This document shows positions 4,172 through 63,781 of a stretch of DNA of 64,000 nt, piece by piece. The stretch covers positions 10,015 to 74,014 of the forward strand of contig CACPLH010000005.1 of NCBI GenBank assembly GCA_902634765.1. The letters run 5' to 3'. The DNA comes from an uncultured Pelagibacteraceae bacterium. GTDB lineage: Bacteria; Pseudomonadota; Alphaproteobacteria; Pelagibacterales; AG-422-B15. The stretch's first letter is position 1, and each line of letters starts with the position of its first letter. Under the pieces are notes generated by a model, which saw only the letters and a list, made by a program, of their open reading frames with translations, did not search any database and was not told where the DNA came from. A program made the position numbers and the translations under genes.

Positions 4172-6463
4172 TTAAGCCTTTCTGGATGAGATTAATAGCA
4201 GTGCTGGTAATAAAAGTAAGTCTACCAAAAGTGCAATAGCAATAATTAAAGCGCACATTCCTCCTATAATATAATTAGATATGAAGATCGACTGAGTTAA
4301 GAATAAAAAGCCAATAAATAAACATATTGACGCAATAATTATCGGATAACCAACGTACTTAAAACAATATTGAATTGAATTTTGAGGAGATAAGCCTAAT
4401 GCTATCGCTTTTTTATATTTTGTTAAAAAATGAATTGTTGCGTCAACGACTAGTCCTATAGATATTAATACTGATGTTTGATGTGGGCCTTGAATCATTC
4501 CTGAGGTTAATGCTCCAATAACTCCAAATCCTAAAATAAACGGAACAATATTTGGTATAATGCTTATAAGACCGTACTTGAAACTTCTAAGTGCAAATCC
4601 AATAAGAATTACTATAAAAGTAAATGAGAAGACTAATCCTGTCATAAGACCCATGGAGTTTTGTTGGTTTAAATATGAAAACATAACAGGTATGCCTGCT
4701 AAACCATCAGTTTTGTATGGTCCCATATTTGAGTTTATCCACTTAATAATTTCATCATTAATTTTCACAACTTCTGATGCTGTTGCATAGTTGATTCTTA
4801 CTAATAATCTTGAGTCAGATTTGTCAGCTGTCATTTGATTTTTAAGGTCCATGCCAAAAGGCACAGAAAACTCATATAGGAGAAGATACTGTGCGATTAA
4901 TGCCTTGTTATCAGGGACACTATAATACTTTTCTTGCCCTCCATTCATATTCTTATTTAAAGTTTTAATAACATTTGAGACTGTCGTTACATTAATAAAT
5001 GTATATTGCTCCTCTAAGTAATTACTAAAATCTTCTAATTTCTTTAAATACGCTGGATCAGTAATACCGTCTGATTGATCTGTTTTTATATCTGCAAAAA
5101 GAAAAAAAGAGCTTCCAAATTCTTTATCGACTACATCCTTTACTTCTAGCCATGAGGGTACTCGATCAAAATAATTATCCCACTTTTCATCAAAGTATAG
5201 ATTCGCTAAAAAACTAAATAGAACTATTGATATTGTTCCCATAGTTATTAAGAGAGTATATTTAAAATTAAATATAAATATTCCCAGGCGTTCTAAAGCA
5301 CCAAGAATTATAACTGACTTTACTTTAGATTTAATTGGTAAGAGTGAAAATAAAATAGGCAGCAATGTAACAGAAAGAATGAAGCTATAAGCAGAACCTA
5401 CTACAACAGTATTCGCCATTTCTGAAAAAGCAGGAATTTTACCTAAGTTAACTCCTCCCATTCCAATAGCAGTTGTTAAGCTCGTCAAGAAAACAGGAAC
5501 AAAATTAATCTTCATACTTTCAACAACAGCTTGATTTCGACTCATGCCTTCTGACATGTTTGTCATAGCGATTGAAATTATGTGTATCGAATGAGCCAGA
5601 GCAATAGTTAAGATAATAATTGGAGCAATAATTAGTGGAGGATTAACATCAAATCCAAACCAACCTGCTGACCCCATTGACGGCAAAATAGAAAGAATAA
5701 TAACAAAGATCGTAATTAAAGAGGCAAGAATAGATCTTAATAAAATATAACTTAGTATAAATATTAGGATTACAAAAATTGGATACATTGTTTGAGCATC
5801 TCGTTCTGCAGTAGTCTGGAAATTATGTGCATACTGAACAGTTCCTGCGATACCAACGAAAATGTCAGGATACTTTTCTTCAAAATATTCTTTCTGCTCT
5901 TTAGCAAACTCCATCGGTTCAGTAAAAGTAACATCTTCTGGCATTTCTAGATAAATGTTAACAAGACTAGCTTTCGAATTTTCAGAGAGGATAAAATGAA
6001 CAACATTATCTTCCTTTAATGCTAAGCTCTTTAGATTACTCAGGTCATCTTCAGTGAGACTATCAATATTAGTTATGAAATCTCCAATATCTATATCATC
6101 GCCATTTACTTTTGTGTATTGGTGATTTGTTATGGACTCTACTCTCGATGAATAAGGTGTTTGCCAAGAATTATTAGTAAGTTCATCAATTAATAGTAAT
6201 ACATCCTTCTGGAATATATCGCCTTCATCAGCTTTAATTGCATATGTTAATACATCTATCTTTCCATACTTTTCCTCTAGATTTGTAATGTTTTTGTAGT
6301 GCGTAAACTCATTTTCGACAAAACCCCTGTAACCAGAAGGAGTCTCTAAAAAACGCATACCAGAAGAAATAAAAAGAATTATTATAGATAATAGTAATAT
6401 CGATTTGAATCTGTGAGATATCAAAAGATTTGTATATTTTTCTATATATGAGTCGATGTTCAT
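4172..6463 (-). CDS. MMPL/RND family transporter
   Basis: 763 aa; two repeats of 1 TM, periplasmic loop and 5 TM; PVFLTSLTTAIG and GLVVDATIHF motifs. Confidence 0.88.
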   Translation of the reverse strand: MNIDSYIEKYTNLLISHRFKSILLLSIIILFISSGMRFLETPSGYRGFVENEFTHYKNITNLEEKYGKIDVLTYAIKADEGDIFQKDVLLLIDELTNNSWQTPYSSRVESITNHQYTKVNGDDIDIGDFITNIDSLTEDDLSNLKSLALKEDNVVHFILSENSKASLVNIYLEMPEDVTFTEPMEFAKEQKEYFEEKYPDIFVGIAGTVQYAHNFQTTAERDAQTMYPIFVILIFILSYILLRSILASLITIFVIILSILPSMGSAGWFGFDVNPPLIIAPIIILTIALAHSIHIISIAMTNMSEGMSRNQAVVESMKINFVPVFLTSLTTAIGMGGVNLGKIPAFSEMANTVVVGSAYSFILSVTLLPILFSLLPIKSKVKSVIILGALERLGIFIFNFKYTLLITMGTISIVLFSFLANLYFDEKWDNYFDRVPSWLEVKDVVDKEFGSSFFLFADIKTDQSDGITDPAYLKKLEDFSNYLEEQYTFINVTTVSNVIKTLNKNMNGGQEKYYSVPDNKALIAQYLLLYEFSVPFGMDLKNQMTADKSDSRLLVRINYATASEVVKINDEIIKWINSNMGPYKTDGLAGIPVMFSYLNQQNSMGLMTGLVFSFTFIVILIGFALRSFKYGLISIIPNIVPFILGFGVIGALTSGMIQGPHQTSVLISIGLVVDATIHFLTKYKKAIALGLSPQNSIQYCFKYVGYPIIIASICLFIGFLFLTQSIFISNYIIGGMCALIIAIALLVDLLLLPALLLISSRKA

Positions 6464-6568
6464 GAGTTGGAAAATACTATTTAATCATCATAAAGGAAGT
6501 AAAATTTCTATATACAATAAAGATATTTAATCAGTTTTTTATTAATAATCTAAAAATTCTTAATAGTC

Positions 6569-6642
6569 TGGTGCCCCTAGCTGGTTACGCTCCAGCGGCT
6601 GATCATTACCAATGACCTGCTTTACTATTAAGCGATAGGGGC
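6569..6642 (-). tRNA. tRNA-Thr(GGU), 74 nt, encoded CCA, non-canonical D- and T-loops
   Basis: Reverse complement GCCCCTA TC GCTT AATAGTA AAGC A GGTCA TTGGTAA TGATC AGCC GCTGG AGCGTAA CCAGC TAGGGGC A CCA; all four stems pair; anticodon GGT; Thr identity pairs G1-C72 and C2-G71. Confidence 0.9.
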
Positions 6643-6652
6643 ATTAATTTAA

Positions 6653-6681
6653 ACTATAGATGGCACATCATATGATAGCAA
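6653..6681 (-). promoter_or_regulatory. Sigma70-type promoter for tRNA-Thr
   Basis: Minus strand TTGCTA (6681-6676), 17-bp spacer, TATAGT (6658-6653), 10 nt upstream of the tRNA. Confidence 0.65.
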
Positions 6682-6693
6682 AAAAATTGAAAT

Positions 6694-6737
6694 TGTTAAA
6701 AATTACACTACATGATGTTAAAAATTACACTACATGA
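6694..6737 (+). repeat. Perfect 22-bp tandem duplication
   Basis: TGTTAAAAATTACACTACATGA twice (6694-6715 and 6716-6737), just upstream of the cytochrome c start. Confidence 0.95.
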
Positions 6738-6746
6738 AAAGTAATC

Positions 6747-7187
6747 ATGAAAGCCGCAATAATTACCTTAGCTATATTAGTTATTACCTTCTTTATATAT
6801 CAGTATAACTCAAATAATAGAATTGAAGAAGAAGTTGCAAAAGTACAACAATCAATTCAACCTAAAACTATAGCGCTTTATCAAGATTATTGTGCATCAT
6901 GTCATGGTGTAAAATTAAAAGGTCAAGAAGGTTGGCAGAATAAACTCGATGAAGATGGCCATCGACTTGCTCCTCCTCTTAATGGAACAGGTCATACATG
7001 GCATCATTCTCCTGATTATTTATTTCGTGTTATTAAATATGGGTTTCAAAGCTATGATCCTTATTATGAGGGTAAAATGGTTGGGAATAGCAACCTTAGT
7101 GATACTGAGGTTTGGGATTTAATAGCTTATTTAAAGCAGGAATGGCCTACTCAAATACAAGATGTTTATAATAGTAGATACGAGTAA
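6747..7187 (+). CDS. Monoheme cytochrome c, N-terminally anchored
   Basis: CASCH heme motif; APPLNGTGHTWHH segment; Met axial-ligand candidate in GKMVG. Confidence 0.88.
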   Translation: MKAAIITLAILVITFFIYQYNSNNRIEEEVAKVQQSIQPKTIALYQDYCASCHGVKLKGQEGWQNKLDEDGHRLAPPLNGTGHTWHHSPDYLFRVIKYGFQSYDPYYEGKMVGNSNLSDTEVWDLIAYLKQEWPTQIQDVYNSRYE

Positions 7188-59253: not shown

Positions 59254-60288
59254 ATGAATAACTTTTCTGACGGTGAAGCATTCGGTAGGGTAAATCTTAT
59301 TGGCGAGCATCTTGATTATAACCAAGGGTGCGTTATGCCTCTTCAAATTAATAAATCAGTAAAAGTATCCCTAAAGAAAGATACTGCAATAGAAGGAATT
59401 AAAATTAAATCTGAAAACTTTGATTATGAAATTGTAACATCTACCATAAATAAGAAGTTGGATAGCTGGGCAGATTTTATCATAGGATCATTGTATTTGT
59501 TTAGTAAAAAATATAATTTAAAAATTGAACAACTATCTATCGAAGTCCAAAGTGATCTTCCAATTGGCATTGGTGTTTCTTCTTCTGCGGCAGTAACTGT
59601 TTCTACATTAAGGGCGTTATATGGTTTATTTAATAAAAAAATTGAAAATAGTGAATTAGTTGAACTAGCTCATTCAGTTGAAAGAGATTTCGTTGGAGTT
59701 GCTGGAGGCGTCATGGATCAATTTGCTTCAATATATGGCTCTCAAGATCAAGCTTTATTTCTTGATACAAAAACAAGTAATTACGATCTCATTAAGCTTT
59801 CTGATGAGTATATTTTTTTCATAATTGATAGCGGAACACAAAGAATACTTACTGATGGCAGCTTAAATAAAAAAAAAGAAGTCTGCAAAAAAATTTCATC
59901 TAAATTAAACGTTGAATACCTCTGTCAGTTAGATGAATTAGATAAAGATCATAAAAAGATATTAACTGATGAGGAGCTTGATATAGCAAGGCATGTTATT
60001 TATGAAAACCAAAGATCGATATTGGGTAAAAAAGCACTTATAGAAAATAACATAGAAAAATTTGGTAGCCTGATGACACAAAGTCATGTTTCCTTAAGAG
60101 ACTTATATAGAGTTTCAACCAGTGAATTAGATTTACTAGTTGATCTGTGTAATAAATTTGGTTCTATGGGATCAAAGTTAACTGGAGCTGGATTTGGTGG
60201 AGCTATAGTAACCTTAATCAAAAAAGAAATGGTAGAAGATTTAAAAATGTTTATTGTAGAAAATTATCCAAATGCTAAATTCTTATAA
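59254..60288 (+). CDS. galK: Galactokinase (GHMP kinase)
   Basis: GRVNLIGEHLDYN, PIGIGVSSSAA, GVMDQ and KLTGAGFGG motifs. Confidence 0.88.
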   Translation: MNNFSDGEAFGRVNLIGEHLDYNQGCVMPLQINKSVKVSLKKDTAIEGIKIKSENFDYEIVTSTINKKLDSWADFIIGSLYLFSKKYNLKIEQLSIEVQSDLPIGIGVSSSAAVTVSTLRALYGLFNKKIENSELVELAHSVERDFVGVAGGVMDQFASIYGSQDQALFLDTKTSNYDLIKLSDEYIFFIIDSGTQRILTDGSLNKKKEVCKKISSKLNVEYLCQLDELDKDHKKILTDEELDIARHVIYENQRSILGKKALIENNIEKFGSLMTQSHVSLRDLYRVSTSELDLLVDLCNKFGSMGSKLTGAGFGGAIVTLIKKEMVEDLKMFIVENYPNAKFL

Positions 60289-61530
60289 ATGAAATTAAAT
60301 TTACCAAATAATTTTATATGGGGTACTGCTACTGCGGCTCACCAAGTTGAAGGAGATAATAAAAACTCGGATTTTTGGTTTTTAGAAAACTTTAAAAATA
60401 CTACATTTGCTGAGCCCTCAGGGATAGCATGTGATCAATGGAATCGCTATGAAGAGGATATTAAAATCATGGTAGATCACTCGATTCAGTCATATCGAAT
60501 GTCATTGGAGTGGGCAAAAATAGAACCAGAAGAAGGAATTTACTCAAATGAAGCAATTGATCATTATCGAAAAGTTCTTGAGTGTTGTAGAAAAAATAAT
60601 TTAAAAACTTGTGTTACTTACCAGCATTTTACCTCACCACTTTGGTTTACTGCTAAAGGTGGATGGGAAAAAAGTGAAAATGTAAAACATTTTTTAAGAT
60701 ATGCAGAAAAAGTTACAAATGAACTTGGTGATCTAATTGATATTGTATGCACAATAAATGAGGCGAACCTTACTGCCTGCTTTGCACATAGTTTTCAAAG
60801 CTATCCTGAAAATGGAATGAAAGCTATTATGCCATTTATAAAAGAAGCAGCAGAAGAGTGTGGGTCAACTCTTGAAAACTTTGGACCCTTCTTATTTGGC
60901 CACCCTTTTAAAATTCGTGATTGTATGATGGAAGCTCATGTAAAATCTGTACCCATTATAAAAAGTATTTTAAATAACAATCAACCTGTTGGCGTCACTT
61001 TATCTATAATGGATTATCAAGCCGCTGAAGGTGGAGAAAAAGTAAGAGATCAAGCATACGCTGAGTCAGTTGATTGTTGCTTGGATCAAGTGATCAATGA
61101 TGATTTTGTGGGAGTTCAGATGTATACTCGACATACATATGGGCCTGATGGCATCATTAAGCCAAAGGCCGATGATCCTAATATGCTTGTAATGGGATAT
61201 GAATATTATCCAGAGTCGCTTGAAAATGTAGTTCGCTACGTATCATCTAAAATTAAAACACCAATTATGATTACTGAAAATGGTATTGGTACTGATGATG
61301 ATAATCAAAGGATAGAATATCTCACGACTGCTCTGCAGGGGCTTCAAAAATGTCTTGATGATGGTATAGATGTTAGAGGATATTTTTGCTGGTCATTACT
61401 AGATAACTTTGAATGGCTTTTTGGCTATAAACCACGATTTGGATTGGTTGAAGTTAATCGAGAAACTCTGGACAGAACAGCAAAAGAAAGTTTTAAATTT
61501 TTTAAAGATGTAATTGATCAGTCTTCTTAA
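60289..61530 (+). CDS. Glycoside hydrolase family 1 (beta-glucosidase/galactosidase)
   Basis: FIWGTATAAHQVEG; acid/base TINEAN; nucleophile ITENG; WSLLDNFEW. Confidence 0.93.
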   Translation: MKLNLPNNFIWGTATAAHQVEGDNKNSDFWFLENFKNTTFAEPSGIACDQWNRYEEDIKIMVDHSIQSYRMSLEWAKIEPEEGIYSNEAIDHYRKVLECCRKNNLKTCVTYQHFTSPLWFTAKGGWEKSENVKHFLRYAEKVTNELGDLIDIVCTINEANLTACFAHSFQSYPENGMKAIMPFIKEAAEECGSTLENFGPFLFGHPFKIRDCMMEAHVKSVPIIKSILNNNQPVGVTLSIMDYQAAEGGEKVRDQAYAESVDCCLDQVINDDFVGVQMYTRHTYGPDGIIKPKADDPNMLVMGYEYYPESLENVVRYVSSKIKTPIMITENGIGTDDDNQRIEYLTTALQGLQKCLDDGIDVRGYFCWSLLDNFEWLFGYKPRFGLVEVNRETLDRTAKESFKFFKDVIDQSS

Positions 61531-61965
61531 TTAAATTTGCTCGTAATCTGACATTGATAAAATACATCCTGCTATCAGCCAATCATTATTTTCCTGCTTT
61601 TCCATCATGTATGTTGCTGTTACAAAGTTTCCGTCTGGATCGACTAAAAAAACATTGAGTGCAGGACTATTTCTATAAGTAGTAACATCTCCAAACGTTA
61701 CCTTTTTTGGTCGATAAACAGCAGGATACTGATTGATAACCATTAACTTGAAATTATCAGGAGACGAAAAAATCTTTTTTATAGATGGAGCAGCATATTT
61801 GAATGCCTGATCAAAGTCATCTTCTGCAAAAGCTTGCAATTGACTTTTGACAGTTTTTTTAATCGCCTCTTCATCAAAGTCAGACAAATCAAATGAGATT
61901 GCCTGACTTTGTAGAATTATTAAAATTAAGAATAATGAAGAAAAGAAGATTCTGAATGTATTCAT
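61531..61965 (-). CDS. DUF4864-like secreted protein
   Basis: Signal peptide; QLQAF...AFKYAAPSI...F..MV...YP.VYRP and W.IAGC motifs. Confidence 0.75.
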   Translation of the reverse strand: MNTFRIFFSSLFLILIILQSQAISFDLSDFDEEAIKKTVKSQLQAFAEDDFDQAFKYAAPSIKKIFSSPDNFKLMVINQYPAVYRPKKVTFGDVTTYRNSPALNVFLVDPDGNFVTATYMMEKQENNDWLIAGCILSMSDYEQI

Positions 61966-63147
61966 CTATAGAATTTCAAATAGTCCAGCGACACCCATAC
62001 CGCCGCCAACACACATAGTTGCGACACCATATTTTGCATTGCGTCTTTTACCTTCTATTAATAGATGTCCTGTCATTCTAGATCCTGTCATTCCATACGG
62101 ATGACCAATAGAAATTGATCCTCCATTGACATTTAATTTTTCATTATCAATACCTAACTTATCGCGGCAATATAAAACCTGTACTGCAAATGCCTCATTA
62201 AGCTCCCACAAATCAATGTCATCAACAGTTAGATTATGCTGCTCCAACAACTTTGGAACTGCAAATACTGGTCCGATACCCATCTCATCTGGTTCACATG
62301 CTGCAACTGATAGTCCTCGAAAAATTCCCATCGGCTCAATATTTCTTTTTTCAGCTTCTTTTAAATCCATAAGTACGCAAGATGAGGCTCCATCAGAAAG
62401 CTGACTTGCATTTCCAGCTGTAATATACTTATCAGGACCCATTACTGGCTGTAGACCAGACAGACTTTCCATTGTTGTTTGAGGTCTATTACATTCGTCT
62501 TTATCAACTGTAACTTCTTGCTCTGAAACCTCTTTCGTTTCTTTGTTCATTACATCCATCATTGTTTTTAAAGGTACGATTTCATCTTCAAACTTACCTT
62601 CGTTTTGAGCGGCTGCAGTTCTTTGTTGACTTTGCAAAGAATATTCATCTTGATACTCCCTGCTTACTTTATATCGATCAGCAACAACATCAGCTGTATT
62701 TATCATTGGCATCCATAGTGCTGGACATACTTTTTGAAGCTCTGGTTCGATTAAATGCTTCATATTCATATTTTGCTGAGTCATTGAAATTGACTCAACG
62801 CCACCCCCTATTGCTACTTTAATTCCATCAACAATAATTCTTTGAGCAGCAACAGCAATTGATTGTAATCCGGATGAGCAAAATCTATTTATAGTAGTAC
62901 CAGGCACGGTCACTGGACATCCGCCAGCTATAGCAACATTTCTTCCAATATTATGTCCTGTAGCTCCTTCAGGTTGTCCACATCCAAAAATAACATCTTC
63001 TACTTCACCTGACTCTATGCCAGCTCTTTCGATTGCGTGCTTAACAGTGTGTCCACCCATGGTAATACCATGTGTTTTGTTAAAACCGCCCCTCATTGCC
63101 TTAGCAAGACCAGTTCTAGCAGTCGATATAATAGCAGCTTCTCTCAT
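61966..63147 (-). CDS. Acetyl-CoA C-acyltransferase (thiolase)
   Basis: NRFCSSG, NEAFA, GHPYGMTG and MCVGGGMG motifs. Confidence 0.93.
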   Translation of the reverse strand: MREAAIISTARTGLAKAMRGGFNKTHGITMGGHTVKHAIERAGIESGEVEDVIFGCGQPEGATGHNIGRNVAIAGGCPVTVPGTTINRFCSSGLQSIAVAAQRIIVDGIKVAIGGGVESISMTQQNMNMKHLIEPELQKVCPALWMPMINTADVVADRYKVSREYQDEYSLQSQQRTAAAQNEGKFEDEIVPLKTMMDVMNKETKEVSEQEVTVDKDECNRPQTTMESLSGLQPVMGPDKYITAGNASQLSDGASSCVLMDLKEAEKRNIEPMGIFRGLSVAACEPDEMGIGPVFAVPKLLEQHNLTVDDIDLWELNEAFAVQVLYCRDKLGIDNEKLNVNGGSISIGHPYGMTGSRMTGHLLIEGKRRNAKYGVATMCVGGGMGVAGLFEIL

Positions 63148-63343
63148 ATGGATTCCTTTAATTTAAATATATAAGTGAGTAACATATCTATTTTAGAGCA
63201 AAAAAAAAGTCAAAAAATCGACTAATAATTGAGTTTTTTAAATAAAAAATATCCCAAAATCTGGCAGTAATTTAATTTATTTATTCTTGACCATGTATCA
63301 CATGAGAGGTAGAAATTGGCCACTTCAAACGAAGAGAATCGCT

Positions 63344-63781
63344 ATGGTAATGCTTAAAACAGAGTCTTCTATTCCAGCTTGGGTGCCTGAAGGCTATAGA
63401 AAATTAGGCTGGCATGCTGGATTTGATGTTTTAATTGGCCCGATGTATTACAAAAAAGATGAGGATGGTAATTTTAAATTTATTACCAAAATTCTTGATA
63501 AACATCTAAATGCTAATGGAGTAGCACATGGTGGATTTTCAATGACATTAACTGATATTTTCTTTGGCACTTTAGCTTTCGTTGCTAGCGGCAAAAAACT
63601 TACTAGCACTGTATCGCTAAACTGTAATTTTGTCAGTCCAGGCCTTCAGGATGAAATTATAGAATGCGAAGCAAAAGTTACTAGAACAACTAGATCTATG
63701 GTTTTTATTGATGGAAATCTAATCAGTAAAGATAAAGTAATAGTTTCAGCTTCTGGTATTTGGAAAATTTTAAATCAATAG
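63344..63781 (+). CDS. PaaI family thioesterase
   Basis: HLNANGVAHGG hot-dog motif; start uncertain (63344 or 63350); the TTG at 63287 looks like a -35 element (TTGACC-17-TAGAAA). Confidence 0.82.
   Translation: MVMLKTESSIPAWVPEGYRKLGWHAGFDVLIGPMYYKKDEDGNFKFITKILDKHLNANGVAHGGFSMTLTDIFFGTLAFVASGKKLTSTVSLNCNFVSPGLQDEIIECEAKVTRTTRSMVFIDGNLISKDKVIVSASGIWKILNQ

Follow-up and report, generated by a model that had tools for sequence, protein, structure and literature searches.

Can a tRNA remain the working decoder of its codons after the nucleotides that are thought to support its L-shaped structure have been replaced? This question is raised by a tRNA-Thr(GGU) gene of an uncultured Pelagibacteraceae bacterium, which is located on the minus strand at positions 6569..6642 of the 64,000-nucleotide stretch of DNA analyzed here (hereafter, the window). 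According to the accessible part of PMC7912444, U54, U55, G18 and A58 are conserved, with the A54-A58 of the eukaryotic initiator as an exception, and in the parts of PMC7912444 and PMC7609411 available to us, G18-pseudouridine55 and T54-A58 are treated as near-universal supports of the L shape. In the gene of the window, the canonical elbow nucleotides G18, U54, U55 and A58 are replaced by A18, A54, G55 and U58. The initial annotation of this DNA proposed that the product is a functional tRNA and that the changes at 18/55 and 54/58 are compensatory.

The gene is composed of 71 nt and an encoded CCA (6571-6569), all on the minus strand. From the 5' end, the acceptor strand to the D-arm reads GCCCCUA UC GCUU AAUAGUA AAGC A, followed by GGUCA UUGGUAA UGAUC AGCC for the anticodon arm and the variable loop, and by GCUGG AGCGUAA CCAGC UAGGGGC A CCA for the T-arm to the 3' end. 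The D-loop AAUAGUA (6623..6629; A14 A15 U16 A18 G19 U20 A21) has 7 nt and contains no GG, with A in place of G18. The anticodon GGU (6608..6610) is inside the loop UUGGUAA (6606-6612), which has U33 and A37, and the T-loop AGCGUAA (6585..6591; A54 G55 C56 G57 U58 A59 A60) is closed by G53-C61 and G52-C62. The variable loop AGCC (6597..6600) has 4 nt, and therefore 15/48 is A/C, with C48 facing A15. U8, A14, A21, G19, C56 and G53-C61 are kept. All four stems are paired, and the cloverleaf is the minimum-free-energy fold of the sequence (-27.8 kcal/mol; z = -3.07, with 0/200 shuffles equally good). The loops, the paired stems, the encoded CCA, the retained G19-C56 and the A-C at 15/48, as described in the initial annotation, were thus all confirmed on the minus strand. 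The identity elements used by E. coli ThrRS are G35 and U36 of the anticodon, G1-C72 and C2-G71. All of these threonine marks are present in the gene, together with A73.

The Rfam model RF00005 matched the gene over its full length (1-71) at 50.9 bits (gathering score 29; E = 5.7e-8), and the gathering score was thus reached without the canonical nucleotides at 18, 54, 55 and 58; this score is the lowest among the 26 tRNA matches of the genome. ARAGORN called no tRNA in the whole window, and it failed on 6/6 of the sequences tried that have this pair of loops, D-loop AAUAGUA and T-loop AGCGUAA (designated type 1). The expectation that scanners may miss such a gene therefore holds for ARAGORN but not for Rfam, which detects type-1 sequences. 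A consensus scan found the promoter-like TTGCTA-17-TATAGT (6653..6681, minus strand), whose -10 element ends 11 nt before G1. The promoter with 17-bp spacing proposed earlier is therefore present, but it is not significant by itself, as 6 promoter-like sites were counted in 6400-6800 against 3.3 +/- 1.8 in shuffles. About 15 nt upstream of the gene, including TATAGT, align at ~95% with the loci of 11 relatives. A perfect tandem repeat (6694-6737; 2.0 copies of the 22-bp unit TGTTAAAAATTACACTACATGA) is situated between the promoter region of the tRNA and a cytochrome c gene (6747-7187, plus strand), and may be an operator or regulatory site. In marine RNA libraries, 10 runs contained sampled words of the tRNA (2 words only), and contigs of 110-405 nt with depth 2-9 from four runs (X3, X5, X6 and X11) covered the tRNA sequence. 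These contigs continue into flanking DNA unlike that of the window, being from other strains, or possibly DNA or precursor, and therefore they are not evidence of a transcript.

The need of the cell for this gene was estimated from the assembly (1.21 Mb, 46 contigs, 78% complete, 32% G+C). The remaining 25 tRNAs of the genome all have a UUCRANY T-loop and GG in the D-loop. The initial annotation had called for a check for another Thr(GGU) gene; none was found in this assembly, which is 78% complete so that another copy could be unassembled, and the 100%-complete relative G051 has a single Thr(GGU)-scoring match. The codons ACU and ACC account for 49% of the Thr codons, ~24 per 1000 codons in 682 long ORFs. 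The acceptor stem of Thr(GGU) is identical to that of Thr(UGU) of the same genome, and Thr(UGU) might read ACU too. The neighbours of the gene encode an MMPL transporter, a LolA-like protein, cytochrome c, a WD40 protein and CobW. These are ordinary genes, and no integrase was found near the tRNA gene, and therefore the copy in the window shows no sign of an island location. The flanks align with one same-genus genome only.

The 74 nt were 100% identical in 33/59 genomes of the family, distributed in 4 genera. One more family genome has the 3' 50 nt only, at a contig end, and 5 have variants of 86-99% identity, which depart from it by paired stem changes and leave both loops intact. A scan of one genome per species (185,579 species), with the D-loop, the anticodon loop and the T-loop at fixed spacing, gave 66 matches, consisting of 65 tRNAs and a chance match on the Omnitrophica contig L103. 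The 65 tRNAs split into two lineages, 37 that are window-like and 28 whose stems differ in every one of the four helices, and the D-, variable and T-loops are identical between them. The second lineage is another order of the same class, the Alphaproteobacteria, in which type 1 was found in 28/34 matched genomes. The T-loop AGCGUAA was thus unchanged in the genes of 65 bacterial species, although relatives are not independent and few evolutionary events may lie behind the bacterial counts; counts that include the genomes G114 and G439 shift by one without them, and none of the conclusions depends on these two genomes. Among 11 distinct bacterial type-1 sequences, the D-loop AAUAGUA was constant except for U20C in two, and the variable loop was AGCC in 11/11. 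The generic type-1 pattern was found in 0/400 other genomes sampled across the phylum. In a sample of 151 alphaproteobacterial families, the 29 best Thr(GGU) genes had the T-loops UUCRAYY (24), UCCGAUU (4) and AGCGUAA (1). The UCCGAUU genes of other alphaproteobacterial families (L074, L082, L099 and L101) have C55 for U55 and keep GG.

Covariation was analyzed on an alignment of 23 distinct type-1 Thr sequences, 11 bacterial and 12 from phages, from which the viral L211 and L217 (acceptor stem 4/7 pairs) were omitted. In this alignment, 97.1% of the stem cells were paired, and two-sided changes occurred at 17/21 pairs. The covariation score was 0.763 as compared with 0.239 in shuffles, and 0/500 shuffles reached it. 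G1-C72 and G53-C61 were present in 23/23 sequences, and C2-G71 in 22/23.

The alleles at this locus were surveyed with a generic pattern that has R at position 18 and a free T-loop; the results cover 50/50 family matches and 150/277 matches overall. Type 1 was found in 38/50 matched family genomes, and the other 12/50 had type 2, with the D-loop AAUGGNA and the T-loop GUCAGUA (G54, G58). Type 2 also occurs in 104/274 sampled genomes of the large Pelagibacter-like sister genus g6 (loci L063-L072), and type 0, with the D-loop AAUGGNA and the T-loop UUCRAUU, in the sister genus, including the closed genomes G061-G064. Hybrids, in which A18 stands with U55 or G18 with G55, were found in 0/50 family genomes and not among the 150 of 277 matches covered. 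The second order yielded 28 type 1, 6 type 2 and 0 hybrids among its 34 genomes, and one genus of it has a canonical 75-nt Thr(GGU) gene. A canonical 76-nt gene is present in two other genera of the order to which the window belongs; the closed genome G059 has such a gene, as detected by Rfam plus ARAGORN.

The flanks of a type-2 locus (G030) and a type-1 locus (G040) are 92% and 90% identical up to the gene, and therefore the alleles replace each other as cassettes; upstream of the gene, G040 is longer than G030 by ~420 bases, in which there is a small ORF. The 5' halves are common to the type-1 and type-2 genes of the second order, with 37/50 non-loop positions shared. Type 1 may have moved between the two orders or arisen twice, and the non-loop positions do not say clearly which. 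Partial copies were also observed. At L182 (G017:C1, ~109090-109457), an intact type-2 variant is placed head to head with a 3'-half remnant of the type-2 gene usual in the family, ~250 nt apart, and the pair appears to record a replacement or integration event at the anticodon loop. At L062 (G057), the 3' half of the type-1 gene is present a second time, in decayed form, 2 kb from the intact copy.

The same elbow was searched for in viral contigs. When the Thr anticodon loop, AGCGUAA and CCA were fixed and the D-loop was left free, 22 viral loci were obtained; 5 were chance matches, and the 17 that fold as tRNAs have A18 G19 in 17/17. With GG-AGCGUAA-CC and CCA fixed, the D-loop free and any anticodon allowed, at least 125 viral loci were found, and cloverleafs were modelled by script; 30 of the 125 had no cloverleaf by this script and were counted as chance. 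Among the matches listed, U-A-G was present in the D-loop of 87/87 unique tRNAs with 20 anticodons, which have 28 different D-loops. A scan that fixed both loops and allowed any anticodon gave at least 125 loci, containing at least 88 unique cloverleaf tRNAs with 21 anticodons; among the matches listed, C48 occurs in 76/88 and G52-C62 in 86/88 of the phage tRNAs with a 7-nt D-loop. In the reverse scan for Thr, the D-loop AAUAGNA was fixed and the T-loop was free. It returned at least 137 matches, and 101 of the 137 listed were chance. Among the matches listed, G55 was present in 18/19 unique tRNAs and UUCRANY in 0/19; the T-loops were AGCGUAA (11), AGCAUAA, GGCGGUA and GGCAGUA (2 each), UGCAAUU and AUCGUUA (1 each), and the 54/58 combinations were A/U in 14, G/G in 4 and U/A in 1. 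The phage Thr tRNAs with the T-loop GUCAGUA had GG in the D-loop in 7/7. This pairing of T-loops and D-loops in the scans shows that 18/55 (G-U or A-G) and 54/58 (U-A, G-G or A-U) behave as two separate, co-varying tertiary pairs. These one-loop-fixed scans and the lack of hybrids in both bacterial orders support the proposal of compensatory changes, and the homologues in both bacteria and phage contigs show covarying rather than random loop changes. With U-A-G in its D-loop and G55 C56 in its T-loop, the tRNA of the window is a member of the A18/G55 class. The elbow class to which type 1 belongs occurs much more often in phage tRNAs than on bacterial chromosomes.

Among the viral loci with GUCAGUA (L349-L359), L358 is identical to the bacterial form and is located at a viral contig end. 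Two unique rewired-elbow phage tRNAs among the matches listed have the anticodon CUA (amber suppressor), and several viral contigs carry 2-3 rewired tRNAs. No match to the window tRNA was obtained by blastn against GenBank phages, nor to the phage locus L260, which has two rewired tRNAs, and for the phage locus L286 only ordinary tRNAs matched. The Aeromonas phage AhSzq-1 (MG676224, L474), reached through L286, was rejected as a named phage with the rewired elbow; its array at 60188-63779 of the record is 3.6 kb long and unannotated, contains 17 tRNA genes by ARAGORN and 16 by Rfam, and has canonical T-loops except for one UUAAAGU. The GenBank phage searches identified no named phage with the rewired elbow.

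This distribution brings up the possibility that a phage-type tRNA displaced the native gene by cassette exchange and was kept because its elbow escapes a nuclease, a toxin or a modification-dependent factor. The abundance of the elbow in phage contigs, set against its absence from the 400 genomes sampled across the phylum, is consistent with this explanation, as are the alternation of alleles among close relatives at one locus and the small islands with restriction and other defence-type genes that the locus borders. Against it, a phage tRNA close to the window sequence was not found, the 38-nt 5' half of the gene is absent from viral contigs, and the 5' halves shared by type 1 and type 2 in the second order also fit a change in place; furthermore, no elbow-directed nuclease was identified here. 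Displacement followed by escape is therefore possible but rather doubtful as a whole. Phage origin and escape function are each plausible, the evidence for both being the distribution of the elbow. As for the suggestion in the initial annotation that the tRNA is phage-derived, the elbow did prove to be common in phage tRNAs, but no close phage tRNA was found and transfer may have run in either direction.

The islands at this locus were recognized in 5 relatives, in which nt 1-38 of the tRNA, a segment that ends at the anticodon loop, recur exactly at 2.6-11.5 kb upstream of the full gene (L197, L198, L199, L200 and L201, in G044, G023, G039, G026 and G049, respectively). The cargo between the copies is variable. 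T5orf172 and DUF4116 proteins are encoded in it, as are an Eco57I-type restriction-modification enzyme accompanied by an SNF2/PLD helicase and a CHAT protease accompanied by a ResIII helicase, and it also contains a urease operon together with a urea ABC transporter. These duplicates flanking variable cargo indicate that the locus is an integration site. An integrase is absent from the cargo of the 5 islands, which look like integrase-less elements inserting at the 5' half of tRNA-Thr(GGU). The exact 38-nt 5' half was searched for in viral contigs as a phage attachment site, and it was not present there.

An RNA that is made but not used by the ribosome, either as a special-purpose tRNA or mainly as a conserved attachment site for islands, could also be considered for a locus of this kind, and the nt 1-38 copies with their variable cargo do mark an integration site. 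Staphylococcal cell-wall tRNA-Gly species are special-purpose, non-ribosomal tRNAs with an altered T-arm, and the altered T-arm of the present gene matches them in this respect. We regard this explanation as quite improbable, since no other GGU tRNA was found even though ACY makes up 49% of the Thr codons, selection for an attachment site would not maintain pairing in all four stems, and the elbow is shared by phage tRNAs with 20 different anticodons, which is easier to reconcile with general translation than with one special pathway. A decaying or dead gene, left as a pseudogene once Thr(UGU) had become the reader of all four ACN codons, would account for the lowest Rfam score of the 26 tRNAs, the rejection by ARAGORN and the loss of four near-universal nucleotides (G18, U54, U55 and A58), but is hardly credible given the identical sequence with its CCA in 33 genomes of 4 genera, the compensated stem changes with constant loops, the finding of just one Thr(GGU)-scoring match in a relative that is 100% complete, and the same loop pair in at least 87 unique phage tRNAs, where decay would give random loop changes.

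The conservation, the compensation in the stems, the lack of a substitute gene and the intact identity marks support the reading that we prefer, that the gene most probably encodes a working tRNA-Thr(GGU), the only decoder assigned to ACC and ACU, in which a normal cloverleaf with threonine identity marks is combined with a second, co-adapted elbow. The functional tRNA proposed in the initial annotation is thus supported, as far as sequence comparison can support function. At the level of the genes compared, A18, C48, G52-C62, A54, G55, G57, U58 and A59 are inherited as a block, A18 accompanies G55, G19-C56 and G53-C61 stay, and 54/58 takes the forms U/A, G/G or A/U.

For a working tRNA with such an elbow, A54 and U58 would still be paired across the T-loop, and this pair could be of the Watson-Crick type, replacing the reverse-Hoogsteen U54-A58. 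A18 would contact G55 in place of the G18-pseudouridine55 contact, and G19-C56 would still cap the elbow, so that the L shape survives and RNase P, EF-Tu and the ribosome presumably still accept the tRNA. A different T-loop fold, e.g., a GNRA-like turn of G55...A59, may also be formed. Pseudouridine55 and any modification of U54 would be impossible on this tRNA; that TrmA/TrmFO and TruB cannot modify 54/55, as the initial annotation pointed out, follows from the letters. These enzymes were searched for in five genomes, the window genome G000 and its relatives G051, G030, G064 and G407. TrmA (PF05958) was not found in any of the five, and TrmFO was not found above its cut-off in any of them, and therefore these streamlined lineages may have no m5U54 at all. 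TruB was found in the window genome and 3/4 relatives, and was not found in the closed, 99%-complete G064.

A broader reading, which we offer tentatively and consider unlikely in its full form, joins the bacterial and phage data. The elbow would have two independently switchable pairs, with the settings G-U or A-G at 18/55 and U-A, G-G or A-U at 54/58; phages would use the alternatives widely, perhaps hiding their tRNAs from elbow-directed nucleases or modification enzymes, and abundant ocean bacteria of SAR11-like lineages would have repeatedly exchanged the only Thr(GGU) gene they have for such an allele, by cassette exchange at an island-bordering locus. If this joint reading is true, nature provides an allelic series for testing the purpose of the 'universal' elbow nucleotides.

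With regard to the textbook rule, a tRNA encoded by a single chromosomal gene in a widespread marine lineage would do without the near-universal elbow supports, and the replacement elbow obeys strict rules across hundreds of phage tRNAs. The canonical, G54/G58 and A18/G55+A54/U58 alleles in close relatives form a comparable series at one locus, and they can be compared for folding, processing, charging, decoding and sensitivity to tRNA-targeting enzymes. In practice, ARAGORN-based pipelines would report tRNA-Thr(GGU) as missing in such genomes and under-count phage tRNAs. Our full-text literature search, which covered sources other than subscription journals, found no published description of A18/G55, A54/U58 or an AGCGUAA T-loop, and in the available part of the SAR11 tRNA paper PMC3937112, the words 'T-loop' and 'tertiary' occur 0 times. 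The new features are the occurrence of the A18/G55 elbow in a chromosomal gene that SAR11-like bacteria have in single copy, its joining to A54-U58, and the allelic series.

Compared with the canonical bacterial Thr(GGU), the tRNA of the window shares the cloverleaf, U8, A14, A21, G19-C56, G53-C61, U33, A37, the GGU anticodon, G1-C72, C2-G71, A73 and the encoded CCA, but differs by G18 to A, U54 to A, U55 to G, A58 to U, A/C at 15/48, the 7-nt D-loop and the 4-nt variable loop. The sister alleles (GUCAGUA with GG, and UUCGAUU with GG) occupy the same chromosomal position in close relatives and, like the window gene, are 74-nt Thr(GGU) genes whose D-loop has 7 nt and whose variable loop has 4 nt; they differ by keeping G18 and U55 and by having U48 instead of C48, and their 54/58 is G54/G58 in one and the canonical U54/A58 in the other. 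The eukaryotic initiator tRNA-Met, in which the accessible part of PMC7912444 describes an A54-A58 Hoogsteen pair stacked on G53-C61, is likewise a natural functional tRNA whose 54-58 is not U-A, function in our case being predicted from the gene. However, as far as that source covers it, the initiator keeps A58, G18 and U55, whereas the window tRNA, a bacterial elongator, has U58 and changed 18/55. tRNA-Pyl and type II mitochondrial tRNAs without G18 G19 and/or T-pseudouridine-C still work, according to the available part of PMC7609411; as described there, their loops are shrunken or variable and the D/T contact, including G19-C56, is lost or remodelled, whereas the window tRNA has loops of near-normal size, keeps G19-C56 and has strictly conserved replacement nucleotides. 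The rewired phage tRNAs are like the tRNA of the window in having U-A-G in the D-loop and G55. In contrast, they are extra and mobile tRNAs, and the tRNA of the window, which joins A54-U58 to this design, is encoded by a single chromosomal gene for one anticodon in a free-living bacterium.
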